The notes: a model not told the origin generated them from the sequence alone. A stretch of DNA of 64,000 nucleotides from Acidobacteriota bacterium (GCA_039191605.1 JBCCXL010000017.1:19457-83456), one strand, 5' to 3'. Counted from the stretch's first letter, positions 14,376 to 63,790 are shown. A program made the numbers and translations.

Positions 14376-14438
14376 GCTTTGGCTTTCAGGGCTTGGCTTT
14401 CAGGGCTTGGCTTTCAGGGCTTGGCTTTCAGGGCTTGC
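14376..14438. repeat. 15-bp tandem direct repeat x4 (ggctttcagggcttg), intergenic
   Basis: Four perfect or near-perfect copies, read directly from the sequence. Confidence 0.9.
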
Positions 14439-14509
14439 TGATTGGGTGTCGGGGGCTGGGGTCGCGTGATCGGGGCTCGTGAATCAGGACGACGCTCAGG
14501 GAGATCCCG

Positions 14510-14974
14510 TCAGGACGACCAGCCCTCGGGGACGCTGGCCTCGAGATTGGCGGCGGTGCGCACCAGTTCGCGGGCGGCTTTGACCTGCGGAGTGAGCTTC
14601 GCCAGGCTGCCTCGGGCGAGGCGGATCTTGCCGCTCATCAGGGCAAGGAGGGGGTCGAGGTCAGATTCCAGCACTCGCTTCCACTGCGCCGGCTCGGCGG
14701 CGAGCACGAAGGGCGCCTCGGCGCGGTCTTCGTCGTTGGCCAGTCGGGCTTCGTGGCAGCGGCCGTGCTCGAGATCGAGGAAGACCGCCCGTTCACTGGG
14801 GATACCCAGATTGGGATCTGCGCTCATCACCAGCACCAGGGCTCCCTCCCAGCTGCTGGCAGCCTCGCGATAGGCCTCGCTGGTGTCCAGGGCGTCGCCC
14901 CAGGCCTGAGCCCATTCGGCGCTGAAGATCTCGGGAGGAGAGGAGGAATCGTCGCCTTTTATAGTTTGGTTCAT
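14510..14974 (-). CDS. SCP2 sterol/lipid-carrier domain protein
   Basis: The C-terminal LALMSGKIRLARGSLAKL is the SCP2 signature region. Confidence 0.65.
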   Translation of the reverse strand: MNQTIKGDDSSSPPEIFSAEWAQAWGDALDTSEAYREAASSWEGALVLVMSADPNLGIPSERAVFLDLEHGRCHEARLANDEDRAEAPFVLAAEPAQWKRVLESDLDPLLALMSGKIRLARGSLAKLTPQVKAARELVRTAANLEASVPEGWSS

Positions 14975-15064
14975 AGACCTGCTTTCCTACCACATTTTCG
15001 CCGAGGCCAGCACTCCGCCCTCGGCCCTGCTAGGATCGGCGCCCGAGGGAAGGAGAAGTACAGG

Positions 15065-16048
15065 ATGTCCGCAACCCAAACCAGCCCACCCCAGGCGCCG
15101 GCGCCGCCCCACGAGCGAACGCCGCAGGATCTCGAGTCCATGCCGTCGATGAAAGATGCCCGCCGCCGTGGCGATCGACCACCGGTCTCCGCCATCGTCA
15201 CCACCTTCAACGAGGAGCGCAATATCGCTGATTGCCTGCGCTCCATTCTGTGGTGCGACGAGATTTTGGTGGTGGATTCGTTTTCCACCGATCGCACTCC
15301 GGAAATCGTGCAGGCCTTCGAGGGCGTGCGCTTCATCCAGCGCACGTACTACGGATCCGCCGCGCAGAAGAATTGGGCGATGGATCAGGTGGAGCACGAC
15401 TGGATCTTGATCTTCGACGCCGACGAGCGCTGCATCGACGCGCTTCAGGACGAGATCGAATCCCTGCTCGCCCGAGGGCCCCGCCACGAGGCGTACACCA
15501 TTCGCCGCCGGGTGTATTTCATGGACCACCTGATCCGCTTCTCCGGCTGGCAGCACGACCAGGTGGTGCGGCTGATCCGCAAGGGCTCGGGTCGCTACCC
15601 CAACCGCCGAGTGCATGCGGACATGAAGACCAAGGGCCCGGCGCCGCTGTTGCGCAACCCGATGTTGCACTACATGGCGGACTCCTTCGACGAGTACTAC
15701 CCGCGGATCATGAAGTACAGCCTGTGGGGTGCCGCCCAGGCCTGGAAGGAAGGCAAGCGCGCGGGGGTGGCGGAGGTCTTCGGCCGCTCGGTGTGGCGCT
15801 TCCTGCGCACCTACCTGATTCAGGGAGGGATCCTGGACGGCATGTACGGCCTCGTCTTCTGCATGCTGCAGGCTTACGGGACCTACCTGAAGTGGTCGAT
15901 TCTCTGGGGCTGGAGAGTCAACGAGAGCCGCGGCATTCAGCCTGCCCTGCCGCTCTTCGATGACGACGAGAGCACCTGGCGCGGATTGGGGGAGGGGGCG
16001 GAATCCCCTGACTCTGCCGAGGGGGATGGCGGGGACGCTGCGTCCTGA
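15065..16048 (+). CDS. family 2 glycosyltransferase
   Basis: VSAIVTTFNEERNIADCL, VVDSFSTDRT and FDADER are the GT2 DxD context. The start is trimmed to the ATG after GGAGAAG. Confidence 0.8.
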   Translation: MSATQTSPPQAPAPPHERTPQDLESMPSMKDARRRGDRPPVSAIVTTFNEERNIADCLRSILWCDEILVVDSFSTDRTPEIVQAFEGVRFIQRTYYGSAAQKNWAMDQVEHDWILIFDADERCIDALQDEIESLLARGPRHEAYTIRRRVYFMDHLIRFSGWQHDQVVRLIRKGSGRYPNRRVHADMKTKGPAPLLRNPMLHYMADSFDEYYPRIMKYSLWGAAQAWKEGKRAGVAEVFGRSVWRFLRTYLIQGGILDGMYGLVFCMLQAYGTYLKWSILWGWRVNESRGIQPALPLFDDDESTWRGLGEGAESPDSAEGDGGDAAS

Positions 16049-16174
16049 CTCGGACCCCTCGCCATCGGCCTCATTGCACTTCGTCCAGAGGGTGAGTCAG
16101 CTCAGAGGAGCGTTCAACAGAGGCCGTGTAGCCAGAACCCTTTAGCGCCTGAAGTAGCTAGCAGAACCGGTTAG

Positions 16175-16456
16175 CTAGCAGCTGGCTCCCCAATTGGGGT
16201 GGTCCAGGGTGAAGCCTTCGTCACCGTCGTAATCCAGGGTGGCTCCATCCAGTTCCCGGGCGGCCATCGCGTCGAGCAGCAGCGGCAGGCCCGACGAGGT
16301 CTGGAGACTGAGATCGTCTTCCTGGGGGCGGCGGGAAACGTGGAGCCGAAAGCCCATGGCGCCGCAGCCACCGGCGAAGGCGATGCGCAGCGTTTCGTCG
16401 TCCCGCAGGTCGCGGTGGGCGGCATGGTGGGCGGCTTCGGTGCAGTGAATCCTCAT
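16175..16456 (-). CDS. HesB/IscA-like Fe-S cluster insertion protein (tentative)
   Basis: A 94-aa protein. MRIHCTEAAHHAA...LRIAFAGGCGAMGFRLHV resembles the IscA fold. The C-terminal Cys context is atypical. Confidence 0.45.
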   Translation of the reverse strand: MRIHCTEAAHHAAHRDLRDDETLRIAFAGGCGAMGFRLHVSRRPQEDDLSLQTSSGLPLLLDAMAARELDGATLDYDGDEGFTLDHPNWGASC

Positions 16457-16819
16457 AGTTATTGAGTTTATCTCAGCGCTTGCCGCGGGGCATTTGGCAC
16501 CTCTTTGGGGGCGATTCAGACCGCCATCTCTTCTCTGCCTTCGGAAGCCTTGAATAGGGTCTAGTGGGTAGTGGTAGCATGTTCTTCTGGGGCCCCGACG
16601 CAGCGTGCAAACGCTCCGTCGCCGCTCTCCTGGCGTCTGGTCCAGCGCTCTGAGACGCAACGCCGGTTCCGCAACTTAGACGCGCTGCGGCGTCCAAATC
16701 GGCGATCTCAAAGCTCAATCGAAGTCCAGGCGGTTTGCAGTCTGAGCTCTCCGTCCGACCCCTCAACCCCTTAGCGGTACCTCACCTGCATCGCCGAACA
16801 CACTGCATCGCCGAGAATC

Positions 16820-18703
16820 ATGTCCTCAAGTACGCTATCCCCAAGCTCCCCTTCCGCCGAACCGCCCCAGCTGCAGGTTGTCGATGACGTCGTGATCCGC
16901 TTTGCCGGAGACTCCGGCGACGGGATGCAGCTCACCGGGAACCAGTTCACCAATACCTCGGCCCTGGTGGGGAACGATCTATCCACGCTGCCAGACTTTC
17001 CCGCCGAAATCCGCGCACCAGCGGGCACTTTGCCCGGTGTCTCGGCATTCCAGGTGCGGATTGCGGACTTCGACATTCACACTCCGGGGGACGCGCCGGA
17101 CGTGCTGGTGGCGATGAATCCGGCGGCGCTGAAGAAGAACATCGGGGAGCTCAAGCCCAACGGCGTGATCATCGCCAACACGGATGAGTTCAACACTCGG
17201 AACTTCAAGAAGGCAAAGATCGAGTCGAATCCCCTGGAGGACGGCTCGCTGGACGGTTTCCGGCTCTTTCAGGTGGAGCTCACCACCCTGACCCGGAAGA
17301 CCCTGGAGTCGAGCCCGCTGGATACTCGCTCCAAGGACCGCTGCAAGAATCTCTTCGCCTTGGGGATGGTGTATTGGCTGTTCTCCCGGCCGCTGGAGAC
17401 CACCGAACAGTGGTTGGGCAAGAAGTTCGCGTCGAAGCCGGAGGTGGTCGAGGCGAACCTCGCTGTGCTGCGGGCCGGCTGGAATTACTGCGATATCACC
17501 GAAGCGTTCCAGATTCGCTATCAGGTGGAGCCCGCGCAGCTGGAGACGGGAACCTACCGGAACATCCACGGGAATAGCGCGATGGCGCTGGGGCTGGTGG
17601 CTGCCGGCCATCTCAGCGGTCTCCAGCTGTACCTCGGGGCCTACCCCATCACTCCCGCCAGCGACCTGCTCCATGAGTTGGCGCGGCACGCGAACCACGG
17701 GGTGATGACCTTCCAAGCGGAGGATGAGATCGCCGCCGTATGTGCTGCGATCGGTGCTTCCTATGGCGGGCATCTCGGCGTCACCGCGTCCAGCGGCCCA
17801 GGGATCGCCCTCAAAGGCGAGGCGATGAATCTGGCGGTGATGGTGGAGCTGCCCCTCGTGGTCGTCAACGTGCAGCGCGCGGGCCCCTCTACCGGAATGC
17901 CGACGAAGACCGAGCAGAGCGATTTGCTGCAGGTGCTCTTTGGACGGAATGGCGATTCGCCAGTGCCGGTGCTGGCGGCGGCGACGCCCGCCGACTGCTT
18001 CGATGTTGCCATCGAGGCCTGTCGCATCGCCCTGCGCTACATGGTGCCGGTGATGGTGCTCTCGGATGGCTACATCGCCAATGGCTCGGAACCCTGGAAG
18101 CTGCCGGATCCCGAGGTGCTGCCGGATTTGCGGCCGACTTTTCAGCCGCCGCCGGAGGAAGACAGTCCGCCCTTCGCTCCCTATTCCAGGGATGCCGAAA
18201 CCCTGGCCCGACCCTGGGCTCGACCGGGAACTCCTGGGCTGGAGCATCGCATCGGCGGCCTCGAGAAGGAAATGGGTAGCGGGAATGTCTCCTACGATCC
18301 CGCGAACCATGGGCAGATGACTCGGCTTCGGGCGGACAAGGTGGCTAGAGTGGCCCGCGAGATTCCTCCTCTCGAAGTGGATGGCCCCGACAGCGGTCGA
18401 TTGTTGGTTCTCGGTTGGGGGAGCACTGCAGGCCCGATCCAGGCGGCGGTGCGCATCGCGCGCAAGGAAGGGATCCCGGTTTCCCGAGCTCATTTGCGCT
18501 ACATCAACCCGTTCCCGTCGAACCTTTCCGAGGTTCTGAGCCGTTTCGAAACGGTGCTGGTTCCGGAGATGAACTCTGGACAGCTCGCTCTGCTACTGAG
18601 GGCCCACACCCTCAAGCCGGTGGAGAGTTATCCCAAGGTCGAGGGACGCCCCTTTACCCGAGACGAGATCGTCACCAAGATTCGCGAGCTCTTGGCAAGC
18701 TAA
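16820..18703 (+). CDS. korA: 2-oxoglutarate/2-oxoacid:ferredoxin oxidoreductase alpha subunit
   Basis: VIRFAGDSGDGMQLTGNQF and the pyruvate-flavodoxin oxidoreductase core domain are present. It is followed by the beta-subunit gene. Confidence 0.85.
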   Translation: MSSSTLSPSSPSAEPPQLQVVDDVVIRFAGDSGDGMQLTGNQFTNTSALVGNDLSTLPDFPAEIRAPAGTLPGVSAFQVRIADFDIHTPGDAPDVLVAMNPAALKKNIGELKPNGVIIANTDEFNTRNFKKAKIESNPLEDGSLDGFRLFQVELTTLTRKTLESSPLDTRSKDRCKNLFALGMVYWLFSRPLETTEQWLGKKFASKPEVVEANLAVLRAGWNYCDITEAFQIRYQVEPAQLETGTYRNIHGNSAMALGLVAAGHLSGLQLYLGAYPITPASDLLHELARHANHGVMTFQAEDEIAAVCAAIGASYGGHLGVTASSGPGIALKGEAMNLAVMVELPLVVVNVQRAGPSTGMPTKTEQSDLLQVLFGRNGDSPVPVLAAATPADCFDVAIEACRIALRYMVPVMVLSDGYIANGSEPWKLPDPEVLPDLRPTFQPPPEEDSPPFAPYSRDAETLARPWARPGTPGLEHRIGGLEKEMGSGNVSYDPANHGQMTRLRADKVARVAREIPPLEVDGPDSGRLLVLGWGSTAGPIQAAVRIARKEGIPVSRAHLRYINPFPSNLSEVLSRFETVLVPEMNSGQLALLLRAHTLKPVESYPKVEGRPFTRDEIVTKIRELLAS

Positions 18704-18801
18704 TCCCAGCCCTCGAAGGGCACTACGACCTTCGATATTCTGGCTACGGCCGTTGAAGATTCGTTCAACGCGGTTTATCCAACGCCTCGACGAGGTTTTT
18801 C

Positions 18802-24387: not shown

Positions 24388-25983
24388 GTGTCTTCAAGCG
24401 TCGACTCCACCGCTCTTCCGTCCCCCTCTTCCTCTACTCTCTCGCCGCGGCAGCGGGAGTTGCTGGAGCGATGGGGAGAAATCCGTGATCTGGACGCCGC
24501 CACTGCCGTTCTGCAGTGGGACCAGGAAACTCAGATGCCGCCGCAGGGGGTCGAGCCTCGGGCCCGGGTGCTCGCGACCCTAGCCGGCCAGCGCCACCGG
24601 CAGCTGACGGATCCGCGCCTGGTGGATCTGGTAGAGGCCTGCGCTGACGAGCTCAACACGGGGGAGCTGGCGGCCCAGGAGCTAGAGCAGGGGGAGGCTG
24701 CCGCCGCCGCTCGGGTGCGCGAGGCGCGCAAGCTGATTCAGCGCACCGCGGCGGTGCCGGAAACCCTGGCCCGGGAGCTGGCGGAGGTCGAGGCGCGAGG
24801 CATGGTGGCGTGGGAGCAGGCCCGAGAGCAGGGGGACTTCGAGCTGTGGCGGCCTCTGCTGGAACATATGGTGGCGCTGAAGCACGATCAGGCCCGCTGC
24901 TGGCTGGACTGCACCGAGGGGGCCGACGGGCCCTACGACACCCTGCTGGAGAGCTTTGAGCCGGGGGCTCGGGAGCGAACTCTAGCGCCCCTCTTTGAGC
25001 AGCTGACGGATGAATTGGTGCCCCTGGTGCGGGCGGTGGCGGAGAGCGGAGTGGAGGTCGATGAGTCTCCCGCCCGCGGCGACTTCCCGGAGGCCGCCCA
25101 GCGCGCCTTGGGCTTTGAGGTGGCGAAGGCCATCGGCTTTGATTTTCAGCGCGGCCGTCTCGATCTCTCAACCCATCCCTTCTGTGTCGGATTCTCCCCT
25201 TCGGACGTGCGCCTCACCTGGCGATTCGAAGAGCAGGATTGGCGCCCCGGGCTGTACGGGATCCTCCACGAAGCCGGCCACGGTCTCTACGAGCAGGGGC
25301 TGCCGGAGGAGGAGTCCGCCTCGCCTCTCGGCGTCGCCGTCTCTCTGGGGATTCACGAATCCCAGTCTCGCCTCTGGGAGAACCTCGTCGGGCGTTCCCG
25401 TCCTTTCCTGCGCTGGCTGCTGGGGCCGCTGCGTCGTCATCTCGATCTCGGTGATGGGGTCAGCGTCGAAACCCTGTGGCCGGCTCTCCACACCGTCAAA
25501 CCGACCTTGATTCGGGTGGAGGCGGATGAGGGCACCTACAACCTCCACGTCGCTGCCCGCTTCGATCTCGAACGACGCCTGTTCCGCGGCGAGATCTCGG
25601 TCGGCGAGCTGCCGGAGCTCTGGGACGAGACCTATGAGCGCCTGCTGGGGATCCGAGCAGAGAATCCAGCGGATGGCGTGCTCCAGGACGTGCATTGGTC
25701 GATGGGAGCCTTCGGCTACTTCCCGACCTACACTCTGGGCACCCTCGCCGCCTCCCAGCTCTACGCCGCCGCCGAGTCGGAGCTAGGTGATCTTCCGGCG
25801 GCCCTGGAGCGTGGGGAGTGTGCCGAGCTGCTGGCCTGGCTGCGGCGGCATATCCACCGCTGGGGCAGCCAATACTCCGCTGATCAGCTACTGCAGGAGG
25901 CCACCGGCGCTGAGCTGAGCCCGCAACCCTTCCTGCAAGATCTGCGGGCCAATGCGCGGGCGGTCTACGGCGTCAGCGTCTGA
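24388..25983 (+). CDS. M32 carboxypeptidase (carboxypeptidase Taq family)
   Basis: HEAGHGLYEQG (HExxH), HESQSRLWEN and GTYNLH are M32 signatures. Confidence 0.85.
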   Translation: MSSSVDSTALPSPSSSTLSPRQRELLERWGEIRDLDAATAVLQWDQETQMPPQGVEPRARVLATLAGQRHRQLTDPRLVDLVEACADELNTGELAAQELEQGEAAAAARVREARKLIQRTAAVPETLARELAEVEARGMVAWEQAREQGDFELWRPLLEHMVALKHDQARCWLDCTEGADGPYDTLLESFEPGARERTLAPLFEQLTDELVPLVRAVAESGVEVDESPARGDFPEAAQRALGFEVAKAIGFDFQRGRLDLSTHPFCVGFSPSDVRLTWRFEEQDWRPGLYGILHEAGHGLYEQGLPEEESASPLGVAVSLGIHESQSRLWENLVGRSRPFLRWLLGPLRRHLDLGDGVSVETLWPALHTVKPTLIRVEADEGTYNLHVAARFDLERRLFRGEISVGELPELWDETYERLLGIRAENPADGVLQDVHWSMGAFGYFPTYTLGTLAASQLYAAAESELGDLPAALERGECAELLAWLRRHIHRWGSQYSADQLLQEATGAELSPQPFLQDLRANARAVYGVSV

Positions 25984-26159
25984 GAGCGCGGCGACGTAGC
26001 GTCCGCAGGCTGCTGCTCAATCTATTGGTCTGATCCCCGGAGGCTGGTTTCGCCTCCCGGGGAGGGCCTGGCCATGGGCGAGCGATGGGTTGCTCGGAGA
26101 GGTTTTGGTTGGGGAGGTGTGGGTAGGGGAGAGGAGATGTGGTTCGGGGGATAGAAAAA

Positions 26160-26196
26160 GCGCCTCTCGGCCCGGTGTTTCGGGCTGAGAGGCGCA
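26160..26196 (-). terminator. Rho-independent terminator (minus strand) downstream of the DUF2911 gene
   Basis: A 13-bp stem GCCTCTCGGCCCG / CGGGCTGAGAGGC with one mismatch is followed on the minus strand by CTTTTTCTAT. Confidence 0.5.
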
Positions 26197-26220
26197 ATGC
26201 TGAGGCTAGGAATCCTAGAG

Positions 26221-26290
26221 CTGGCCATGCTGAGACTGGCCATGCTGAAACTGGCCATTCTGAAACTGGCCATTCTGAAACTGGCAACCT
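26221..26290. repeat. 15-bp tandem direct repeat, about 4.5 copies (ctggccatgctgaaa), intergenic
   Basis: Read directly. It also generates a spurious antisense ORF beginning MPVSEWPVSEWPVSAWPVSAWP. Confidence 0.9.
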
Positions 26291-26312
26291 CTAGGATTGA
26301 GTCGTCCGCTAC

Positions 26313-27200: not shown

Positions 27201-27603
27201 GGGAAGTCTCCTTGAGGGATTTTCTATGAGAAGGACCAGGGCCTAAGGAAAGATGTAGGGGTGCGACACTTTGCGGTCTGTCGTCGATTCAAATCAGTTG
27301 GCTGGTAGCCGAGAGCAGCCTTAGGAGGCTAAGCTCAACGCGAGTTCTGCCGTGGTGACTCGACTCACCTTGGCTCAGCTATTTATCATTATCTGTGGAC
27401 GAAGCTCGAGGTTCCTTAGCAACTATCTACGGCGGGGAGGGCCTGAAGTTCGTCGCAGCTCTCACTGCTTACGAGCTTCGGCCGCTGGCTGCGGCTGTCG
27501 CAACCCATGCGGCGCCAACGTCCTCAATCGCGGCTCGGGCTCATTCTCGGTGCTTCGAAGCCCTTTGGGGTATCAGGAGTTTCCCGGACCCCGTTCCCGG
27601 GCC

Positions 27604-27642
27604 CTGAGCTCCCGGAGCCTGAGCTCCCGGAGCCTCACCTCC
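27604..27642. repeat. 15-bp tandem repeat x2 plus a partial copy (ctgagctcccggagc)
   Basis: Read directly. It lies upstream of the gene at 27680. Confidence 0.7.
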
Positions 27643-27679
27643 ACCCGATCTTCCACTTCCTGACGCCCCTTCAGCTACC

Positions 27680-29898: not shown

Positions 29899-30240
29899 GG
29901 CAGCTGCGATGGGGATACAGGGGGAAGCCTGCGGAGGTGGAAGAAGCTTCCTGGGAGTCTCCACCGTGAAGCGGTGGATGGATTCCTCCGGGTGACTCCC
30001 GAGGGCTAGACCAGTGTACCGCCTGAGCTTCTCGCGGAGCCGGCTCGGGAGCCTTACGGAGGGTCGCGAGAGGAGCCTGAAACCTTCGGATCTTCCTCCT
30101 CGTTGTCCTCTATATCCCCCTGCTGGTATTCGCTGGCGTCGGGGCGGAGGATGAGCGCGCCGTCGCCGACCTGAGGATCGGGAGAGTAGCGGCGAGGTAC
30201 AATAGAAAGGTCGGCTCGGCCGACGACACTTCCCGCTGAA

Positions 30241-30349
30241 GATCACAGCGATCTGAAGATCGCGGCGTTTGAAGATTGCGGCATTCGAAGATCATCGCGT
30301 CTGAAGAGCACCGCGTCTAAAGAGCATCACGTCTGAAGATCACCGCATA
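30241..30349. repeat. 16-bp tandem direct repeat, about 6.8 copies (tgaagatcgcggcgtt and variants)
   Basis: Read directly. It lies 75 bp upstream of the SPFH gene start. Confidence 0.9.
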
Positions 30350-31615: not shown

Positions 31616-31619
31616 AGGG

Positions 31620-35603: not shown

Positions 35604-38600
35604 GTGGCGACAATCCCGGGACCCTCAGCGGATCCGTCCTCAGCGGTGGAAGAGCTCGATCCTGAAGATCGAGGCGAGGAGAGGAGTGCGTCCACAGAGG
35701 CGGAGGATGCCGGCTGGCGCCGGGTTAGCGCGCAGCTAGAGGCGGTCATCGATCAGCTCGATGGTCTGCGCGGAGAGGTCTCCACCCTGCGGCGCAGGCT
35801 CGACGTGCTGGAGGAGCAGAGAGAGGCGCAAGGAGCGGCGGACTCTGCCCTCGAAGGTGTTGCGGCCCAGGGCTCCGCCACGGTTGTCTCGACGGGCGAA
35901 CCTTCGGCCGATGGCGATTCCCTGGCGACGGTGACCAACGAGGCGGCCAGCCTTGAGACCGTCGGCATTGATACGGCCAGTGCGGAGAGGACCAGCGCTG
36001 ATTTAACCGGTGCTGATTTAGCCAGTCTTGGGGCAGCCGATGCGGAGACCGTCAACGGCGAGACCTCGAGCCCCGACGGAGCCGTAGAGGACGGGCAGCA
36101 GGAAGGGAAACCCTCCAAGGGACGGATGGCGGAAGCGGTGGCCGCGGCGCGAAAACGCGTGGTGGCGGCGGCGCCGTCGCCGCCGCCGGAGCGGGCCCAG
36201 GCGCTGGAGACCACCATCGGCGCGGTGTGGTTCAGTCGAGTCGGCCTGGCGCTGTTGATGGTCTTCTTCGCTCTCTTTGCGCGCTGGGTGGTGCCGGCTC
36301 TCTCGCCGGCCCTACGGGTCACCGCCAGCTACCTGGCGGCGGTGCTGCTGGGCTTTGTCGGCCTGCGTCTCTCGCAGCGCCTTCCGACCTTCGGTCGCTC
36401 GGTAGTAGCGGGGGGGCTGGCGGTGGCCTTCTTCACCTCCTTCGCCGCTCATTTCGTTCCCCCCATGGCCTGTCTGCCGCTGGTGGCCTCACTGCTCTTG
36501 ATGGCGGCCTTCGTGGTCGCTCTCTTGATCTGCGCGGAGCAATGGGACGCCCCGGGGATCGCAGGCCTGGCGCTCACTTTGGGCTACGTCGCCGCCTTTG
36601 TCGCCAGCTACGACGCCGAGATCTTTTCCATGGCGGCCATCGTCTTCCTCGCCGCCGCGGCGGTGGGGTTGGTGGTGCGCCACGACTGGCTTCCCCTGGG
36701 CTTCTACTCGGTTCTCGCTACCTTCAGCTTCAACCTGCTGACCTGGTTGGCGAACCCCGCCTTGGCGGCGAACGAGGACCGCTTCGCCCTCAATCTCGCC
36801 GCCCTGACGGCGTATTACCTGCTCTACGTCTCCGTCGATCTGGTGTTCCATCATCGCCTGGCGCGGCGCGGGATCGCCGCCTTCCCGCAGCGAGATCGGG
36901 TCGCCGGGCGCTGCATCGGAGCGACGGCGGTGGCCGCCTTCGGCGTGCAGGGGGTGCTGCTCTTCCACTCCATCCCCAGCCATTGGCAGCAGGTTCACCT
37001 CTTCCTCGCCGCCGCGGCCCTCTTCCAGCTGGTGCTCACGGTCGTTCACCGCATCTTCGACGGTGGGGAGCGCATGCTGCACCTCACTTCGGCGGTGACC
37101 TTCGTCACCCTCGCGCTCTTCGCTTCGGTGGGGGGGCTGGCCCTCAACATGGCGCTGGCGGCGGAGGCGCTGCTGCTGCTGGTCCTCGGCAGGACCACCG
37201 GAAATTGGTTCCTGCGGCCTTTGTCCCAGAGCGTCTTGGTGGTGAATTTCTTCCACTTCTGGTTCTCCGAGGCGCGGGAGGTCAACAGCTGGCCCCTCTT
37301 CCTCGGGGCGGTGGTGATGGCCTCGGTGTACTTCGTCAAATCCCACCACAACGACACCTGGGCGCCGGTGCCGGACGAGGCGCGCTTTTCGCCGGTGGGG
37401 GGCTTCTCCCGCTGGTGGCGCAAGGCCTACGGCCGCGCCAGCACGCCCATCGCCTATTGGCAGACCCTCTCCGGCGCGGCGCTGATCTCCTATCAATGTG
37501 ACCTCTTTCTGGCCGCTCCCTACAACGCGCTGATGTTGGTGGGGCTGGCGGCCATTACCTTCGCCGCCGGGATCGCATTTCATAGCGCGCCGATTCTGCA
37601 GGGCGTGGCGCTGATGCAGATCTCCGCCGCCATTCTGCTCCTGCGCCAGCTCATCGAGGCGCCGGCCCGATGGCCTTCGTGGACCCGGGAAGTGAACCAG
37701 GGGGTGGTACTGGCCCTCGCCCTCCTCGCCCTGGCGGCGGTTTGGGTCGCCCGGCATCGCCATCGCCGCACCTATATGCGCTTCGCCAGCGCGGCCTTGC
37801 TGGCCACCGGCCTCGGGGCCTTGGGGGCCGGGCTGACCCCCGCGGTGGCGAGCCACCGCCTTCTGGCCCTCGGCCTGCCGGCGGTGGTGGCGGTGGTGAT
37901 GTGGATCTCCATCGAGATCTGGCCTTCGGCGCCGCGGCCGGTGGCGGAGCTGTCCCGCCGCCTGGCTCGCTTCTATCGCGGCACCCGCCGCCGCCGCGCC
38001 GTATTTGCCGCCTTTGCGGCGACCGCACCCTTCGCTTCGGCGGGAGCGGTGCTGGAGCCCTTCTCCGCCCTCGCCTGGCTCTCCCTCTGGGGACTTGCCC
38101 TCGCCGCTGCGGCGCTGGTTCGCGGCAGCGCCTATCTGCTGCTCGGCGTGCTGATTCATCAGCTGGTCTCCGGGGCCCTGGTGATCTTCCACCTCTCCAC
38201 CGGATCCGCCGCCCACAACCTGCTGAAGTGGTGGGTGGTGACGGCGATGGTGGTGGTGGCGGCGGCCCTCTTCCATCGTGCCGGAGCGGTGCGTCGGGCC
38301 TCCTTCGGGGTGGTGGGCTTCGTGGTCTTCTTCGAGAGCCTGCTGATCCTCGCCATCACCGCCGTGGCTCCGGAGCAGCGATTCGACCCGGTGTGGATCT
38401 GGGCGCTGCCGCTGGCGGGGCTGTGGTGGGTGATCGAAGCGCTGCGGGCCTGCCCGGTGCGCTGTCCGGTGACCACCAGCTCCTGGCAGGACCGCTGGGG
38501 GAGCCGCTGGCTGCCCCGCTGGTGCCACCCCGGCGCCGGGGTGGGATCGATCCTCACCGCGGCGGTGCTGGGCTGCATCCTGGGCCGTGCTCTGCCCACC

Positions 38601-40957: not shown

Positions 40958-41150
40958 GGCATCGCTCAGAGACTTAGCGCCAGAGATCCAGCACCAGAGA
41001 CGTCGCGCAGCCCGGAGGGCATCGCGGAACCTGCTGCTGCCCAGGTTCTGCTCACCCCAGGCTCAGCCGCCTAGACTCAGCCGTGTGGGCTGCTGTTCCT
41101 GAGCGATTATTTTTCTTCGGCGAGCTTCTGCGAGAAGCCGGCGCGGGGGA

Positions 41151-51421: not shown

Positions 51422-54400
51422 GTGTCTTTAATGTGCCCTGTGTCTCCTAATCTAGGGTCAGCTGACGTCGATGGGCTCCTGGGGCTCGACGCCCTGGAGT
51501 CGGCGGTTGATGAGCACCCTAAATTAGGGCCGACGGTGGTGCATCGAGCGCGCCTCGAGGCCCAGCCCCGGCGTTCGGGGACTTTGGAGAAGGAGCTGCC
51601 GGAAGCGCTGCTGCAGATCCTGCGGGAGCGCGGGGTGGAGAATCTGTGGAGCCACCAGGCGGAGGCCCTGGATCTCGCCCGCCGGGGAGAGGACGTGCTG
51701 GTGACGACCCCCACCGCGTCCGGCAAGTCCTTGGTCTTTCAGCTGCCGGTGCTGGAAGAGGCGCTGAAGGGAGGGGAGGGCAGGGCTCTTTGGCTCTTCC
51801 CCCTCAAGGCCTTGGCCCAGGATCAGCGCGCCAAGCTGATGGAGATGGCCTCTGCCGTGGGGGTAGAGGAGAACTTCTGCGCCATCTATGACGGCGATAC
51901 GCCGCGCTCGCTGCGGCCGAAGATCCGCGCCGATCCGCCGCGGGTGCTGATCACCAACCCCGACATGCTGCACTTGGGTTTGCTGGCCCACTGGAATAGC
52001 TGGCGGCCCTTTTTCGCCTCGCTGCGCTGGCTGGTGCTGGACGAGCTGCACACCTATCGCGGCGTTTTCGGCAGCCACTTTCATCACGTGCTGGCGAGGC
52101 TCCAGCGCTTGTGTGCTCGGCTCGGCGCTCGCCCCGCGGTGATCGCCTCCTCCGCTACCGCCGACAACGCTGAGAGCTTCGCCGCGACCCTGATTCGGCG
52201 CCAGCTCACCACCATCGAGACCAGCGGCGCCCCGCGGGAGGCCCGCCGCTTCGTGCTGCTGCGCCCCTCCGCCAGCCCCTACACCGCGGCCCTGGACCTG
52301 CTCTGCCTGTGCCTGGAGCACGGCATGAAGACCATCGTCTTCACCAAGGCCCGGCGCATCACCGAGCTGCTCTATTCCTGGCTGCGGCGGCGGGATCCGG
52401 CGCTGGCGGCGCGGGTGCGCTCCTATCGGGCGGGCTTCCTGCCGCAGGAGCGCCGGCGAATCGAGGGCCGCCTGGCTTCGGGGGAGCTGGATGGGGTGAT
52501 CTCCACCTCGGCGCTGGAGATGGGGATCGACATCGGAGGCCTGGATGCCTGCATTCTGGTGGGTTACCCCGGCAGCGTGATGGCCACCTGGCAGCGCAGC
52601 GGCCGGGTAGGGCGCAGCGGGCGGGAATCCCTCACCGTGATGGTGGCGCTGCCGGATGCTCTGGACCAATACTTCCTCGATCACCCCCAGGAGCTGCTGG
52701 AGCGGCCCTGCGAGCGGCTGATCATCAACCCGAGGAACCGCCCGGTGGCGGAGGCCCACCTGCGCTGTGCGGCGGCGGAGCTGACGCTTTCCCGGGAGCT
52801 GGACGAGGATTACCTGGCCGACCAGGAAGAGGCGGTGGAGGCTCTGGTGGCGGCAGGAGATCTGCTGGAGGACGCCTCCGGCAGCGAGCTCTTCTGCGTT
52901 CGCCGTCGGCCCCACCGAGATGTCGCTCTGCGCGGCAGCGGCGGGACCCTCGAGGTGCGCCTGGATGGTGGCGAGGGAGCGGTGGTCGGCACTCTGGACG
53001 CCGGCCGAGCGCTGCGGGAGGCGCACCCCGGGGCGATCTATCTTCACGGCGGGCGCTCCTTTCGAATCGAGGCGCTGGATCTAGACTCCCAGCGCGCCCT
53101 GGCGGTGGCGGAAGAGGCGGATTACTTCACCACGCCGATGGCCCATAAGGAGACGGAGATCCTGGAGGTCCTGGAGCGGCGGGACGATGGTCCCCTCACC
53201 GCCTGGTTGGCGAGGCTGCAGGTGCGGGAACAGGTCACCGGCTACGAGCGCAAGCGGCTGCTGGATCAGGAGGTGCTCACCCGGCGGGACCTGGTGATGC
53301 CGAAGACCGAGATGGAGACGGTGGGGCTGCTCTTCGCCGCGGGGCCCGCCATCGAGGATGCCCTGAGGCGGGCGGAGCAGGGCTTCATGGGGGCGCTCCA
53401 CGCTTCGGAGCACGCCGCGATTTCTCTGATGCCGGCCTTCGCTCTGTGCGATCGCGGGGATATCGGCGGCATCTCGATCCCCTTCCACCCCCAGGTGGGA
53501 GCCGGGGCGGTGTTCATCTACGACGGGCATCACGGCGGCATGGGGCTGGCGCAGGAGGCCTTCCAACGCTTGCCGGAGCTGCTGTTGCGGGTGCGGGAGC
53601 TGCTGGACGCCTGCCCCTGTGAAATCGGCTGTCCCAGCTGTATCCAGAGCCCGAAGTGCGGCAACGGGAATCGACCCCTAGACAAGGCCGGAGCGGCCCA
53701 CCTTCTGCGCCTGCTGCTGGCGGAAGAGGCCCTTCCGGAGCCTTCTGATCCGCGCCTGGAGATCACCTTCGCGGCGCCGGAGGACGAGTCCAAGAAAGGC
53801 GAGGAAGGGGCCTCGGCCCCCGCCTGGGGAGGGATTCTTCGAGAGCCGGGGGCGAAGGTGGATTCGGCTCCGGTGGAAGAGCCCGCAGCGGTTGCGCAGC
53901 GCACTCTGCCGGTGGGAGAGCTCTCTCATCGCGAGGGTTCACGGTGCGGTAGTGAAGGGGGCCCGGCGGCGGTCGGCGCGTCGACGAGCCCCGAGGTGCC
54001 TAAGGCGAAGGCTGGATCATCGAAGACCGGCTCATCGAAGAAGGGGACATCCAAAGCTGGCTCATCCAAGGGTGGCTCATCCAAGAGCGGGCCATCGAAG
54101 GCCGTCTCGTCGGGGTCTGCGTCTCCAAGCCCTGCGTCTCCAAGCCCTGGGCCGTCTGGATCCGCGTCGTCGGGTTCTGGCGACTTACCTCTCACCGTGC
54201 TTTTCGACCTCGAGACGAAGCGCTCGGCGCAGGAGGTGGGGGGGTGGAATCGAGCCCACCGCATGGGCATCGCCATCGGCGTCGTCTGCTTCCTGGAGGA
54301 AGGCCGATTGGAGGTCTATCCCGAGGATCGGGTGGGGGAGCTTCACGCCGATCTCCGCCGGGCTTCTCTGGTGATCGGCTTCAACAGCCGGCGCTTCGAT

Positions 54401-54727
54401 TACGCGGTGCTCTCCGGCTATACCGGGGAGGACTACAGCCGCACCTTACCGACGCTCGATCTGCTGGAAGACCTGCAACGGCGCATCGGTCGCCGGGTGA
54501 GCCTCGATAGCCTCACCGCCGCCACTCTCGGCGCCAAGAAGAGCGCCGACGGGCTACAGAGCCTGGAATGGGTGAAGCAGGGGCGGCTGGACCTGGTGGA
54601 ATCCTATTGCCGCCGCGACGTCGAGCTGCTGCGAGACCTCTATCTCTTCGGGCGCCGGGAGGGCTACGTCCAGTTCACCCGCCGCAAGACCGGCGGCGAG
54701 GTGGAGAGAGTGGAGGTCGATTGGTGA
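51422..54727 (+). CDS. MrfA/YprA-like DEAD/DEAH-box helicase with DUF1998 (4-Cys) domain, fused through a Ser/Gly/Lys repeat linker to a DnaQ-like 3'-5' exonuclease (MrfB/YprB-like)
   Basis: Helicase motifs: TPTASGKS (motif I) and VLDELH (motif II). DUF1998 Cys cluster: CPCEIGCPSCIQSPKCGN. C-terminal exonuclease motifs: FDLET (Exo I), FNSRRFDYAVL (Exo II) and YCRRDVELLRDLY (Exo III). Confidence 0.8.
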   Translation: MSLMCPVSPNLGSADVDGLLGLDALESAVDEHPKLGPTVVHRARLEAQPRRSGTLEKELPEALLQILRERGVENLWSHQAEALDLARRGEDVLVTTPTASGKSLVFQLPVLEEALKGGEGRALWLFPLKALAQDQRAKLMEMASAVGVEENFCAIYDGDTPRSLRPKIRADPPRVLITNPDMLHLGLLAHWNSWRPFFASLRWLVLDELHTYRGVFGSHFHHVLARLQRLCARLGARPAVIASSATADNAESFAATLIRRQLTTIETSGAPREARRFVLLRPSASPYTAALDLLCLCLEHGMKTIVFTKARRITELLYSWLRRRDPALAARVRSYRAGFLPQERRRIEGRLASGELDGVISTSALEMGIDIGGLDACILVGYPGSVMATWQRSGRVGRSGRESLTVMVALPDALDQYFLDHPQELLERPCERLIINPRNRPVAEAHLRCAAAELTLSRELDEDYLADQEEAVEALVAAGDLLEDASGSELFCVRRRPHRDVALRGSGGTLEVRLDGGEGAVVGTLDAGRALREAHPGAIYLHGGRSFRIEALDLDSQRALAVAEEADYFTTPMAHKETEILEVLERRDDGPLTAWLARLQVREQVTGYERKRLLDQEVLTRRDLVMPKTEMETVGLLFAAGPAIEDALRRAEQGFMGALHASEHAAISLMPAFALCDRGDIGGISIPFHPQVGAGAVFIYDGHHGGMGLAQEAFQRLPELLLRVRELLDACPCEIGCPSCIQSPKCGNGNRPLDKAGAAHLLRLLLAEEALPEPSDPRLEITFAAPEDESKKGEEGASAPAWGGILREPGAKVDSAPVEEPAAVAQRTLPVGELSHREGSRCGSEGGPAAVGASTSPEVPKAKAGSSKTGSSKKGTSKAGSSKGGSSKSGPSKAVSSGSASPSPASPSPGPSGSASSGSGDLPLTVLFDLETKRSAQEVGGWNRAHRMGIAIGVVCFLEEGRLEVYPEDRVGELHADLRRASLVIGFNSRRFDYAVLSGYTGEDYSRTLPTLDLLEDLQRRIGRRVSLDSLTAATLGAKKSADGLQSLEWVKQGRLDLVESYCRRDVELLRDLYLFGRREGYVQFTRRKTGGEVERVEVDW
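54016..54120 (+). repeat. 15-bp tandem repeats x7 inside the helicase gene, encoding the (G/S)SSK-type linker
   Basis: The DNA reads gctcatcgaagaccg / gctcatcgaagaagg / ggacatccaaagctg ... This encodes GSSKTGSSKKGTSKAGSSKGGSSKSGPSKAVSS. Confidence 0.8.
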
Positions 54728-54883
54728 GATCCGAGGGAAAATCTCGGATCTCGGCTGGGCACCCCTAACCTGGAATGCTGCCGCTGACGGCATGCCGCCG
54801 CCTGGATTTTTCTGAATTGCTTCCGCCGACCGACTTCCGCTGAAAAGGGGGAGCGGAGACCGGCCCGACCGACTCAGCTGCAC

Positions 54884-57591: not shown

Positions 57592-57595
57592 GCCG

Positions 57596-58132
57596 ATGAG
57601 CGCAACTCCCGAAGTAGGCGCTAGCGCCTCTGCCCTGTCGCCGACCCTGGCATCGGGCTCAGCCCAGGAGCCCGCCGAAGAGAGCCGGGCACAGTCTCCC
57701 TGGGTACTCTGCGAAAGCGGAGGGATGGCCTTCGCCGTCGATCTGGATCGGGTGGTGGAGGTCTTTGGCGCTTCCTCTCTGCTGCCGGCTCCCGACGACG
57801 CCCCGGAAGCGGTGATCGCCATCGCCCAGGGAGGCGGCCTGCGGGTTCCGGTGGTGTCTTTAGCTCGCCAGCTGGGGGTGGAGGAGGCGGTGGAGGCGAA
57901 TCGGCGGCGAGTGCTGGTGGTGTCCTCCCAGGGTCGCGCCATCGGTCTGGAGGTGGATCGGGTGCGCAGCATTCTGGCCCTGGAGCGCGCCGGCCGGCAG
58001 CCGGTACCGAGGGTTCTAGCCGGCATCAGCGGCGGGCTTCCGGCCATTGCTGGCTTCGCTTTTCACCAGCAGCGCTGGCTGATGTTGTTGGAGGTCGACG
58101 GTCTGCTCTCGCCGCGATGGGGCCGGTCTTGA
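57596..58132 (+). CDS. cheW: CheW-like coupling protein
   Basis: WVLCESGGMAFAVDLDRVVEV and the downstream beta-sandwich pattern. The start lies 4 nt after the cheA stop. Confidence 0.7.
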   Translation: MSATPEVGASASALSPTLASGSAQEPAEESRAQSPWVLCESGGMAFAVDLDRVVEVFGASSLLPAPDDAPEAVIAIAQGGGLRVPVVSLARQLGVEEAVEANRRRVLVVSSQGRAIGLEVDRVRSILALERAGRQPVPRVLAGISGGLPAIAGFAFHQQRWLMLLEVDGLLSPRWGRS

Positions 58133-58565
58133 TAGGCTCGCCAGCCTGGCTCGCGGGAAGGGATCGAAGGAGCGGCTCTCGGTCCGATGAATCCCTTGCC
58201 CGAGACCATCGGTTGGCTTCCTTCCTGCACTGCTTTCCCCTACCTTCTCTCGTGGCGGCCATCGGCGCCGCGATCCGGGTCTCTCATCCCCTGCGTCCCG
58301 CAGATGAATCCTGCATCCACGGCGCCCCTCGGGGCCTGTCGACGGTGGTCCCGACGGAGATTTCCGCTCTTCGCGGGGTCCTGCGGCAGCCCAAGGCCTG
58401 CGCTCTCTAGGGAGCCGGGCCATTCCGCAGCTGCGGTCCTCGGGTCCTCTCGTTTCGACCTTCCCGGGCTCAAAGATCCTGCAGGTAGCGATGACAGAAG
58501 ATGGGCAGGACAGAAGACGGATCGGCAGAAGAGCTTCAAGCATCGGCATCTCAGACTTCGAAATT

Positions 58566-58700
58566 CAAAGACATCGACGGCCAAGACAGTGATGGCCAAG
58601 ACAGTGATGGCTAAGACAGTGATGGCTAAGACATCGACGGCCAAGAAAACGACAGTCAAGAAAACGATAGATAAGACAGCGACAGTCAAGACATCGACAT
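58566..58700. repeat. 15-bp tandem direct repeat x9 (ccaagacagtgatgg and variants), between cheW and the HEAT-repeat gene
   Basis: Read directly. The spurious ORFs over it encode KTVMAKTVMAKTV repeats. Confidence 0.9.
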
Positions 58701-58872
58701 CCCTGGGAGAGCGCCGCGGTGCACCTTCGCCGCGACGCAGCTTCAGCAGGTGGATTGTTCACCCGACTTTCCTCCTAGTGGTTCCAGCGGCGGTGGTTCC
58801 GGGGACCATGCTCCGGCGCCCACCCCGAGCCCACCGATCGATAGTGACGACGTAGCGAGAGGATCATCGACC

Positions 58873-61631: not shown

Positions 61632-62845
61632 ATAGCTCCTCCAGCAGCGGGCCGCTGCGCGTTGCGGTGGTGGATGACTCGAGCTTCGTGCGCAAGGCCA
61701 TCAGCCGCATGCTGGAGAACGACGAGCGCATCGATATCGTCGGACAGGCGGCGAGCGGTGAGGAGCTGCTCACCCATCTGCTGGAATGGGCGCCCGACGC
61801 CATCACGCTGGATCTCTCGATGCCCGGCATGGGCGGCCTGCAGACCCTCGATCGGGTGATGGCGGTGCGCCCGACGCCGGTGATCATCCTCTCTACCCAC
61901 TCGGCGAAAGATGCTCCGCTGACCATCGAGGCGCTGCACCGCGGCGCCATGGACTTCATCGACAAGCAGCAATACTCGCTGGTGGATTTCGAGTCTCTGC
62001 GGGCGGTGATCCTCGAGAAGCTGCTTTCGGTGCGCTCGGCGAGTCTGCCGTCGCCGCGCCGGGGCGGTACCGGTGAGCAGCCGGCGGCGAAGACCAGCCC
62101 GCGGTCTTCGAAGCCCACGGCGCGGGGAAAATTGGGGAAAAGCCCCCAGTCCCAATCCCAGTCTCGATCTCGAACCGGGCCCCAATCCCGGGCACAGCCC
62201 CGGACTCGAGGCGAGGCCGGCGCCGTGCGCCGAGCCCCGGTGCAGCCCTCCCCGCGCTTCGACGTGCTGCTGGTGGGGGCCTCCACCGGGGGGCCGCCGA
62301 CGATCCAGAAGCTGCTAGAAGATCTCGGCGCTACGGTGTCGGTCCCGGTGCTGGTGGTGCAGCACATGCCCAAGGGGTTCACCCGAGCCTTTGCCGACCG
62401 CCTCAACTCTCACCTCGAGGTCAGCGTGCGGGAAGCCTCCGACGGCGAGCGATTGGAGCTCTCCACGGTGTATCTCGCCCCCGCGGGCATGCATCTGCGG
62501 GTCGCCCGCCGCGAGGATCAGCTCTTCGCCCAGCTCACCGAGAGCCCCCGCCACCTCACCCACCGCCCCTCGGTGGACGTGCTCTTCGAATCCGCCGCGC
62601 GGGTGGTGGGACGCCGCTGTCTCGCCGCCCTGCTCACCGGCATGGGCAGCGACGGTGCCCAGGGGATGGCCCGCATCGCCGATGCTGGAGGCTACACCGT
62701 GGTGCAGGATATGGAATCCTGCGTCGTCTACGGCATGCCGCGGGCGGCGAAGAATCTGCGAGCGGTGCGCGAAGAGCTCTCCCTGGACGTTCTCGGAGGA
62801 CGCCTCCAGCAGCTCCTCGGCGCTCCGCAGCCGGGCTCCGGGTAG
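61628..62845 (+). CDS. cheB: CheB-type methylesterase with N-terminal receiver domain
   Basis: REC: VAVVDDS, TLDLSMP and KQQ. CheB catalytic region: LLVGASTGGP, VLVVQHMPKGFT and GMGSDG. The GTG start overlaps the cheR stop. Confidence 0.9.
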   Translation: MNSSSSSGPLRVAVVDDSSFVRKAISRMLENDERIDIVGQAASGEELLTHLLEWAPDAITLDLSMPGMGGLQTLDRVMAVRPTPVIILSTHSAKDAPLTIEALHRGAMDFIDKQQYSLVDFESLRAVILEKLLSVRSASLPSPRRGGTGEQPAAKTSPRSSKPTARGKLGKSPQSQSQSRSRTGPQSRAQPRTRGEAGAVRRAPVQPSPRFDVLLVGASTGGPPTIQKLLEDLGATVSVPVLVVQHMPKGFTRAFADRLNSHLEVSVREASDGERLELSTVYLAPAGMHLRVARREDQLFAQLTESPRHLTHRPSVDVLFESAARVVGRRCLAALLTGMGSDGAQGMARIADAGGYTVVQDMESCVVYGMPRAAKNLRAVREELSLDVLGGRLQQLLGAPQPGSG

Positions 62846-63002
62846 TCCCGGGGGGACACGACGGCCACAGGCCTGAGGGGGGGCGACCTGGAGAGGTCTC
62901 GAGGGGTGAGTTCTGGGGCGATGGGTCTGCTAACATCCGCCGTGAGCTACCCCTTCCGAAGTCCCCCAATATCCCTCTGACCCTAGGAGCGTTCCTGCCG
63001 CG

Positions 63003-63680
63003 ATGGCCGCACGAAAGAAAGGCTCTTCCCGCTCTGCCTCCGCCGGATCCCGTTCCCGAGGCAAGGCCCCGGCGAAGAAGGACGAAGAACAGACCGTGAG
63101 CCAGGGCGAAGGTTCGGCGGACGAGGCGTCGTCAGAGGAGACGGCGCAGCCGGAGATCGACTCGGAGCTGGATCGGGTCTTTCAGCTGGCGGACGAGCTC
63201 AACGAGGCGGAGATCGAGCAGGAGGCACAGGAGAAAGCTAGCTCTTGGGTCACCTTCCGGGTAGCGGAGGAGATCTACGCCCTGCCGGTAGCGAGGGTGC
63301 AGGAGGTGATCAAGGTGGGGCCAGTGACGCCGGTGCCCCACACCCCGGTCTCGGTGCGCGGGGTCACCAACCTGCGAGGGCGAGTGCTGACGGTGGTGGA
63401 TTTGAGAATCCGCTTCGGCTTGGCGGAGAACGCCCTCAGCGAGCACCACCGGATCCTGGTGAGCCTCACCAGCAGCGGCCCGGTGGGGCTGCTGGTGGAC
63501 TCCGTCAGCCAGATGATCGCCGTGCGTCCCAGCGAGGTGGTGCCGCCGCCGGACGACGCCGCCACCGACGATGCGATTACCGGAGTGGTCTCTCAGCGCG
63601 ACGAGCTCACCTCTCTGCTCTCTCTAGAAGCTTTGCTACAAAGTCTGACCGCCGCCGCCAGCGCCAGTCACGGCGCCTAG
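63003..63680 (+). CDS. cheW: CheW-like protein with a charged N-terminal extension
   Basis: WVTFRVAEEIYALPVARVQEVIKVG...VRGVTNLRGRVLTVVDLR is a CheW domain. Confidence 0.7.
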   Translation: MAARKKGSSRSASAGSRSRGKAPAKKDEEQTVSQGEGSADEASSEETAQPEIDSELDRVFQLADELNEAEIEQEAQEKASSWVTFRVAEEIYALPVARVQEVIKVGPVTPVPHTPVSVRGVTNLRGRVLTVVDLRIRFGLAENALSEHHRILVSLTSSGPVGLLVDSVSQMIAVRPSEVVPPPDDAATDDAITGVVSQRDELTSLLSLEALLQSLTAAASASHGA

Positions 63681-63709
63681 TCGTCCCGCCCTCCGCAGCG
63701 CTATCTTTT

Positions 63710-63790
63710 GAGAGGCTATGTCTTGAGAGGCTTATGTCCTAGGCAGGCTATGTCCTGGGCAGGCTATGTCCTGGCGAGGCTGTGTCTTGG
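63710..63790. repeat. 15/16-bp tandem direct repeat, about 5 copies (ggcaggctatgtcct), intergenic after cheW
   Basis: Read directly. Confidence 0.85.

Follow-up and report, generated by a model that had tools for sequence, protein, structure and literature searches.

Tandem arrays with 14–16 bp units of unrelated sequence are overrepresented between genes in a 64 kb stretch of an Acidobacteriota genome

Why would a stretch of bacterial DNA contain many short tandem arrays that agree in the length of their repeat unit and in nothing else? The question is raised by 64,000 nt of one Acidobacteriota metagenome-assembled genome (MAG; GCA_039191605.1, JBCCXL010000017.1:19457–83456), which we refer to as the window and number from its first letter. 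A further 4.8 kb past the window end was also analyzed, so that ~69 kb of the organism was covered. An original prediction, made from the sequence alone, described six intergenic and two coding arrays with a period of 15–16 bp. We located arrays with Tandem Repeats Finder (TRF) and then read the units in register, and all eight are present where they had been placed. The period is as described for the others listed, but that of array A is 14 bp. Overall, we found that intergenic arrays with 14–16 bp units occur at ~14 times the density seen in comparison loci, with no enrichment of other periods. We lean, with moderate confidence, toward the view that these are locus-unique minisatellites that were born and expanded in place, with a unit size specific to the lineage and with selection removing only frameshifts. 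The arrays are as follows.

Array A, 14379–14437: 14 bp unit TTGGCTTTCAGGGC, 4.2 copies (four plus TTG), 100% identity.
Array B, core 26221–26285, with degenerate flanks 26198–26298: 15 bp unit CTGGCCATGCTGAAA, 4.3 copies, 96% identity.
Array C, core 27595–27642: 15 bp unit TCCCGGAGCCTGAGC, ~3 copies, 89%–92% identity (two overlapping TRF rows).
Array D, 30236–30346: 16 bp unit CTGAAGATCACCGCGT (units of 15–17 bp), 6.9 copies, 75% identity.
Array E, 58568–58698 (to 58702 in register): 15 bp unit AAGACAGCGACGGCC, 8.7 copies (nine), 81% identity.
Array F, 63700–63789: 15–17 bp unit GGCTATGTCYTGRGAG, 5.7 copies, 73% identity, with indels.
Coding array, 7264–7448, plus strand: 12 units of 15 bp, in frame, encoding LVAED.../AQLEQ pentapeptides.
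Coding arrays, 54004–54153, plus strand: 10 units of 15 bp, in frame, of two unit types.
Weak intergenic array, 26096–26134: 15 bp unit, 2.4 copies, 75% identity.
Weak intergenic array, 40967–41001: 14 bp unit, 2.5 copies, 76% identity.
Weak intergenic array, 58712–58744, directly after array E: 16 bp unit, 2.1 copies, 82% identity.

The comparison set comprised 163 loci (~1.97 Mb), namely loci of other bacteria (mostly Planctomycetota, but also some Acidobacteriota and others; L001–L080), unclassified metagenome contigs with a gene for a DUF2911 homologue (L083–L162), and three further contigs (L166–L168). Identical TRF settings and a crude gene mask were applied to the window and to these loci. 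Among intergenic TRF arrays with a score of at least 30, the period is 14–16 bp in 10 of 15 in the window, versus 21 of 229 in the comparison loci (309 kb; Fisher p = 5e-7). The corresponding intergenic densities are 973 and 68 per Mb (Poisson p = 4e-9). The other periods are not enriched in intergenic DNA (487 per Mb in the window vs. 674 per Mb in the comparison set), which makes the excess period-specific. If only arrays with at least four copies of a unit of at least 10 bp are counted, there are five in the 10.3 kb of intergenic DNA in the window (487 per Mb) versus five in 300 kb of the comparison set. A separate detector of adjacent duplicates (at least 88% identity) gave eight loci at lag 14–16 (0.9 expected), six at lag 12 (1.7 expected), and none at lags of 17 or more (1.3 expected). 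Within the window the excess thus stands up well statistically, and against the comparison set the original prediction was right in calling a common period unusual.

It could be argued that the arrays are nothing more than ordinary bacterial variable-number tandem repeats (VNTRs) whose shared period is a sampling accident, with TRF thresholds and codon periodicity favoring units of 12–15 bp. The comparison loci lend this some weight, in that 15 bp is their commonest period (at least three copies, score of at least 50), ~44% of their non-coding-like arrays with units of 10–40 bp fall at 14–16 bp, and some Planctomycetota loci are as array-rich as the window (e.g., L062, with five arrays in 21 kb). 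However, it is with identical thresholds on intergenic DNA that the strong excess at 14–16 bp alone appears, and arrays of four or more copies are likewise far denser in the window. Moreover, the window holds ~110 arrays per Mb (at least four copies), above every bacterium in a published survey (maximum 23 per Mb), a comparison in which detection criteria differ and 64 kb was sampled (PMC6749651). We therefore consider it rather unlikely that the arrays are ordinary VNTRs that agree in period by accident.

It should be noted how the arrays compare with what that survey describes. Across groups of 119 bacterial reference genomes, the median satellite density is 0–3 per Mb, with the maximum of 23 per Mb given above; Methanosarcina reaches up to 89 per Mb (PMC6749651). 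Methanosarcina, Burkholderia, and Chloroflexus are far richer in short-unit satellites than others (Subirana and Messeguer 2019, PMC6749651), and Acidobacteriota are absent from the satellite-rich species in Table 1 of the survey (PMC6749651). The 12–16 bp units of Burkholderia and Chloroflexus are dimers of 6–8 bp microsatellites and occur in families (PMC6749651), whereas the units here have no internal periodicity and form no families. A microsatellite origin was rejected: TRF reports no shorter or half period in any array, and therefore the units are not dimers of 7–8 bp microsatellites. The likeness to satellites and to the VNTRs used for multiple-locus VNTR analysis (MLVA) lies in the head-to-tail direct repeats of 10–30 bp, in a handful of copies, and in units that are often sequence-unique and are ascribed to replication errors.

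Given that the source is a short-read MAG, it is reasonable to ask whether the arrays are artefacts of assembly or binning. We compared the window with the Logan contigs of run SRR22824305, which come from another assembler, run probably on those same reads. The check spans arrays B to F and the array at 7264, and over all of these the Logan contigs are 100% identical to the window. One Logan contig starts at 14408, within the perfect array A, where a k = 31 graph is expected to break on a 59 bp perfect repeat. The break means that the copy number of A comes from the MAG assembler only, and both A and the arrays at 54004–54153 are taken from the MAG assembly. The agreement elsewhere, and the preservation of the reading frame through the coding arrays, make an artefact extremely improbable.

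Each array consists of several direct copies of a unit of at least 10 bp, arranged head to tail, as in minisatellites. The units abut without spacers, unlike those of clustered regularly interspaced short palindromic repeat (CRISPR) arrays. The typical units of arrays A to F are 14, 15, 15, 16, 15, and 16 bp, and the full range of intergenic units is 14–17 bp, whereas the units of the coding arrays are all 15 bp and in frame. By TRF the six intergenic arrays have 2.7–8.7 copies; in register the coding arrays have 10–12. Array lengths are 48–185 bp, and four exceed ~100 bp (D, 111 bp; E, 131 bp; the array at 7264, 185 bp; and that at 54004, 150 bp). At 54004–54153, about seven SSKxG-type pentapeptide copies are followed by a perfect 2.2-copy array of CTGCGTCTCCAAGCC at 54117–54149.

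The arrays differ in age, judging from their identity, which is 100% for A and the array at 54117, 96% for B, and 72%–81% for D, E, F, and the array at 54006. The suggestion that each array is locally homogeneous thus applies to A, B, and C, but not to the others (73%–81% in D, E, and F). Read in register, C has five units across 27580–27654, with degenerate copies on either flank; higher-order periods of 30 and 60 bp are found in E, and one of 32 bp in F. The perfect arrays both finish in a partial copy of 3 nt, as A is 59 bp (4 × 14 + 3, ending in TTG) and the array at 54117 is 33 bp (2 × 15 + 3, ending in CTG). The chance of a 3 nt terminal partial copy at both perfect arrays is ~(1/64)^2.

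The units are also unrelated in sequence. When all units of the window and of the comparison loci are matched cyclically, the best matches lie within the range of shuffled units; no k-mer common to the six intergenic units is above expectation, and no unit has copies elsewhere in the window beyond chance near-matches. With the pairwise and shared k-mer tests both at chance level, the claim that the unit sequences are mutually unrelated is well founded. The companion claim of expansion in situ rather than dispersal of a mobile repeat is supported by units that are locus-unique and mutually unrelated, by flanking copies that are partial or degenerate, and by the 30/60 bp higher order. Nor do the arrays have the features of repetitive extragenic palindromic (REP) sequences or miniature inverted-repeat transposable elements (MITEs), as there are no dispersed copies in the window and only B and C have short flanking inverted repeats, which are mutually different. 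CTGAA/AAGAC-like cores were considered as a shared motif, as was a match of 12–13 of 15 positions between array B and an array of Roseimaritima; in shuffling tests both are at chance level.

Two compositional observations concern the units. A 7-mer, CAAGCCC/GGGCTTG, is common to units of three otherwise unrelated arrays (14379–14437, 7369–7445, and 54117–54149), and is the only nominally significant k-mer (p = 0.005 before correction for eight k-mer tests). In addition, A makes up 28% of the sense strand in the arrays versus 16%–18% in coding strands and in regions upstream of genes; T is unchanged. The enrichment is weak and based on only seven independent units.

Where the arrays lie relative to genes was read from the Logan gene calls. 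Array A separates two minus-strand genes: it lies downstream of one that encodes 154 aa, and 38–97 bp upstream of the ATG (14341) of the other, which is ribonucleotide-reductase-small-chain-like. Array B lies between convergent genes, with stops at 25983 and 26313; a terminator-like hairpin with a 15 bp stem (26160–26195) occurs just before it, and a perfect 10 bp inverted repeat, AATCCTAGAG / CTCTAGGATT, brackets it. Array C is in the divergent intergenic region between the start of the DUF2911 gene (27200, minus strand) and a GTG at 27680 (plus strand), ~40 bp upstream of the GTG, and is bracketed by an inverted repeat of 12 nt (83%; 27567–27578 and 27658–27669). Array D is in a divergent intergenic region of 526 bp, ~80 bp upstream of the ATG of the SPFH/Band-7 gene at 30425. 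Array E is ~175 bp upstream of the start of a HEAT-repeat gene at 58873, inside a gap in the chemotaxis operon, and array F begins 20 bp after the CheW stop codon and is followed, ~130 bp further on, by the ATG of an M28 peptidase gene at 63920. The weak array at 40967 is apparently between convergent gene ends, according to our own reading of the open reading frames (ORFs), in which the minus-strand gene is putative.

In the chemotaxis operon, the 740 bp from CheW to the HEAT-repeat gene (58133–58872) are without a convincing gene. A minus-strand Logan gene call at 58016–58543 overlaps CheW and has an Arg/Pro/Gly-rich translation, and is probably spurious. Arrays C and E were also considered as small-protein ORFs, and this was rejected because of an implausible Arg/Pro/Ser-rich translation, no excess of GC at third codon positions (GC3), and no corresponding call in the Logan assembly.

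The original prediction had several arrays directly upstream of gene starts, and for five of the six (A, C, D, E, and F) this is so, but B is between convergent stops. By our own estimate, five of six is about what random intergenic placement would give. Still, the five are 38–175 bp upstream of start codons and in the orientation of the gene, and this could be expected if the arrays were cis-regulatory, either as repeated sites for transcription factors or nucleoid proteins or as copy-variable promoter spacers in the style of contingency loci. A short core (AAGA...) that is invariant in D and E, where other positions vary, would fit such a role, as would a distant relative (L001) in which a 13 bp array precedes SPFH and a second, perfect array of 14 bp units precedes a different gene by ~45 bp. 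On the other hand, no motif is held in common across units that nevertheless have one length, and each array would therefore need its own factor. A unit of 14–16 bp is 1.3–1.5 helical turns, which means that consecutive sites are not on the same face of the helix. No sigma-70-like promoter hexamers were found in or beside any array; B, and apparently the 40967 array, are between convergent genes, thus array placement is not tied to promoters; and units of this length are found within genes too, at sites that can have no promoter role. For these reasons we think a cis-regulatory role unlikely. The suggestion of a periodic DNA-binding protein finds no shared motif and no helical phasing in its favor, and that of promoter spacing or phase variation is unsupported, given the missing hexamers and the arrays between convergent gene ends.

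Known regulatory repeats differ from these arrays in other respects also. Contingency loci share with them the presence of slippage-generated tandem repeats near gene starts. However, phase-variable promoter repeats are known with units of 1–7 bp, which separate or adjoin the promoter hexamers or are out of frame within ORFs, whereas here the units are 14–16 bp, no promoter hexamers were found, the coding copies are in frame, and some arrays are between convergent genes. Iteron and operator arrays (plasmid Rep sites, ParR/ParG centromeres, and OmpR/PhoB-type sites) are similar in being short tandem direct repeats in non-coding DNA. They have one unit sequence per system, helical phasing of ~11 or 21–22 bp, and a position beside the cognate rep or par gene. 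Here the unit differs from array to array, the period is 14–16 bp (1.3–1.5 turns), and the neighbors are unrelated housekeeping genes, with no rep or par genes nearby.

Tandem repeats within 400 bp upstream of SPFH orthologues occur at 6 of 79 loci. Judging from how dense intergenic arrays are in those loci, we estimate this to be about baseline, and a conserved array position upstream of SPFH was rejected on this basis. A common RNA structure was rejected also. Arrays A, D, E, and F have no folding advantage over shuffled sequence, and although the B and C regions have one (z = −6.4 and −3.5), this is because of the neighboring terminator hairpin and the short flanking inverted repeats. No promoter or terminator consensus was found at the arrays, and Rfam gave no match at the gathering threshold anywhere in the window.

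The distant relative L001 deserves mention in its own right. It is a Deltaproteobacteria-labelled MAG that has the window's gene pair next to SPFH, and its arrays lie at 9907–9949 and 13021–13072. One is a 13 bp unit in 3.3 copies ~50 bp upstream of SPFH, and the other is a perfect 14 bp unit in 3.7 copies whose distance from the ATG of another gene (~45 bp) reproduces the geometry of array A, with unrelated sequence.

Within genes, the 7264–7448 array forms the linker from the AAA_16 to the TPR regions of a 1269-aa ATPase, outside its Pfam domains. The 54004–54153 arrays belong to an MrfA-like DEAD/MZB helicase and are in its C-terminal tail, past the last Pfam domain (MZB). The helicase gene (51422–54727) encodes ~360 aa beyond that domain, a Lys/Ser-rich tail with SSKxG repeats from the 15 bp arrays.

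How, then, might such arrays arise? We suggest that a first duplication of ~15 bp would be made by misalignment of the nascent strand between direct repeats of 2–6 nt, during replication slippage or misaligned repair synthesis. Units and multi-unit blocks would then be added by further slippage or unequal exchange, and the arrays would finally erode through point mutations and 1 bp indels. The duplication process would be blind to sequence and to gene boundaries, with selection acting merely as a filter: in genes, only units of 15 bp (five codons) would survive, and only in linkers and tails, whereas between genes units of 14, 15, and 16 bp would all survive. The narrow unit size and high density would then reflect a property of the replication or repair machinery of the lineage, not a function of the arrays. 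The reasons for proposing sequence-blind duplication and expansion in situ are the unit size common to genes and intergenic regions, the age spread, the higher-order blocks, and the degenerate flanks. Of the two options offered by the original prediction, a peculiarity of replication or repair fits better than a periodic binding protein, as the same unit size occurs in genes, at exactly 15 bp and in frame.

A different origin for the first duplication would be a staggered double-strand cut of ~15 nt that is filled in and rejoined, with later expansion by slippage. The cut could come from an excised transposon or casposon-like element, leaving its target-site duplication, or from a nuclease combined with end-joining. 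The attraction is that a duplication of fixed length that ignores sequence is the output expected of a transposase, an integrase, or another molecular ruler, and would account for a narrow size range with unrelated sequences; casposons make target-site duplications of 14–15 bp. However, in bacteria excision footprints are rare. Pfam detected neither a transposase or integrase nor Cas1 among 30 large window ORFs, and the units are 14–17 bp, varying even inside one array. The 3 nt partial copies at the ends of both perfect arrays are not predicted by fill-in and favor microhomology misalignment. A staggered cut as the source is thus, in our estimation, highly unlikely.

Several considerations weigh against slippage with a lineage-specific size bias. 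We know of no slippage mechanism that predicts a narrow optimum at 14–16 bp, and published slippage frequencies fall smoothly with distance. A lineage-wide bias is extrapolated from ~69 kb of one MAG, and the loci with which it was compared are phylogenetically heterogeneous (Planctomycetota, other Acidobacteriota, and others). It is only slightly remarkable that three coding arrays have 15 bp units, as this is a common coding period elsewhere, and the position of five of the six main arrays at 40–175 bp upstream of start codons may reflect a cis role. Further, copy-number variation would be the hallmark of active slippage, and the assemblies compared come from the same sample. The more specific proposal, that the lineage has a molecular ruler that repeatedly creates tandem duplications of ~15 bp across the chromosome, be it a peculiarity of the replisome or of flap processing or an enzyme that makes staggered cuts of ~15 nt, can be put forward only tentatively.

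The closest analogue, by comparison of features, is the pervasive tandem repeats of Borg extrachromosomal elements (PMC9879509). These are unique repeats found in intergenic regions as well as within ORFs, where they keep the frame, and partial repeats lie at their flanks (Schoelmerich et al. 2023, PMC9879509). Within the 64 kb of the window, as in Borgs, the arrays are at many independent loci (eight with at least three copies, found between 7 and 64 kb), and each unit sequence is unique. Genic units are divisible by three, leave ORFs intact, and are in linkers or termini, in low-complexity or disordered segments. Intergenic units are mostly not divisible by three in Borgs, and here they are 14, 15, 15, 16, 15, and 16 bp. 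Partial repeats flank the arrays, here as the extra TTG of A, the extra CTG of the array at 54117, and the degenerate flanks of B and C. The typical intergenic unit is specific to the genome, with a mode of 17–20 nt in Black Borg and 14–16 bp here, and the tandem-repeat density is of the same order (~50–60 per Mb in Borgs, ~110 per Mb in the window) (PMC9879509). The sense-strand A-bias reported for Borg repeats is in the same direction here, but weak.

There are also clear differences. Borgs are AT-rich, linear, archaeal extrachromosomal elements, whereas the window is a GC-rich segment of a bacterial chromosome with housekeeping genes. Borg repeats are almost all perfect and recent, but here two or three of nine are, with the remainder 73%–81% identical. 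Borg units are 9–54 nt or more, and the range here is much narrower. Copy-number variation within populations has been shown for Borgs (PMC9879509).

If the pattern extends genome-wide, a bacterial chromosome would here match Borgs or Methanosarcina in its wealth of tandem repeats, with an unusually sharp preference for one unit size. A sharp preference that is independent of sequence would point to a mechanistic ruler in replication or repair, which could be looked for among the genes for polymerases, nucleases, and end-joining in the genome. With such a ruler, the Borg-like landscape of a bacterial chromosome would amount to a mutational signature that is new and particular to the lineage, seeding pentapeptide-repeat linkers in proteins, and would show, outside Borgs, one mutational process making new disordered pentapeptide repeats. 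If not genome-wide, the arrays would be a handful of ordinary VNTRs. As a practical matter, they could be ready strain markers, and are a warning for short-read assembly of the lineage.

The host DNA is otherwise ordinary. The window has ~65% G+C throughout and a steady, positive GC skew, and the genes identified by a Pfam scan of the 30 large ORFs (smaller ORFs were left out) are typical of a chromosome. They include NAD-dependent DNA ligase (LigA), MsrA, 2-oxoacid:ferredoxin oxidoreductase (PFOR), glycogen phosphorylase, an M32 carboxypeptidase, an SPFH/GYF operon, a Ser/Thr kinase, and a signal peptidase, in addition to the MrfA-like helicase and a CheA/CheW/CheB cluster. An exact-sequence look-up identified the window proteins as MEM9293041–MEM9293083 of an Acidobacteriota MAG, whose contig here is 157,759 bp long. 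No close relative of the organism is present in the collections searched: eight window proteins that are their own cluster representatives are each the sole member of a 90% identity cluster (~15 billion proteins). The nearest relatives have no more than 64% amino acid identity for LigA (protein search), 75% for SPFH (genome-contig scan), and 49% for DUF2911 (metagenome-contig scan). The contigs of the three nearest LigA relatives (L166–L168, 60 kb) are without the 14–16 bp pattern of the window; their likely intergenic arrays are solely a 13 bp unit in 3.4 copies (L167) and an 18/78 bp repeat block (start of L166), and the genes of L166 contain several arrays of at least three copies with units of 12, 18, and 21 bp.

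Past the window end, the two intergenic regions in the 4.8 kb contain no further arrays. An in-frame, Ser-rich array of 18 bp units (3.2 copies) is found at the N-terminus of the M28 peptidase (63956–64000, or 2523–2579 of L081), and the other repeats in this extension, a 24 bp unit in 2.1 copies and a 9 bp unit in 3.0, are both within the peptidase gene. Among the comparison loci, several from Planctomycetota are array-rich, yet with broad period distributions. An example is L009 (Roseimaritima sediminicola), with seven tandem arrays of periods 15–37 in 21 kb (1730–18528), including a dispersed hairpin-containing family, CTTTCGCGGAGCGAAAGGCGACA, at 7553–7785 and 9834–9927. Back in the window, ARAGORN calls a tRNA-Pro(cgg) at 38978–39061, inside the gene for a 1484-aa DUF2339 membrane protein; Rfam gives no tRNA there at the gathering threshold, and the call is probably a false positive. 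The same gene coincides with a region (36000–40000) in which T greatly exceeds A on the plus strand (AT skew of −0.31 to −0.43).

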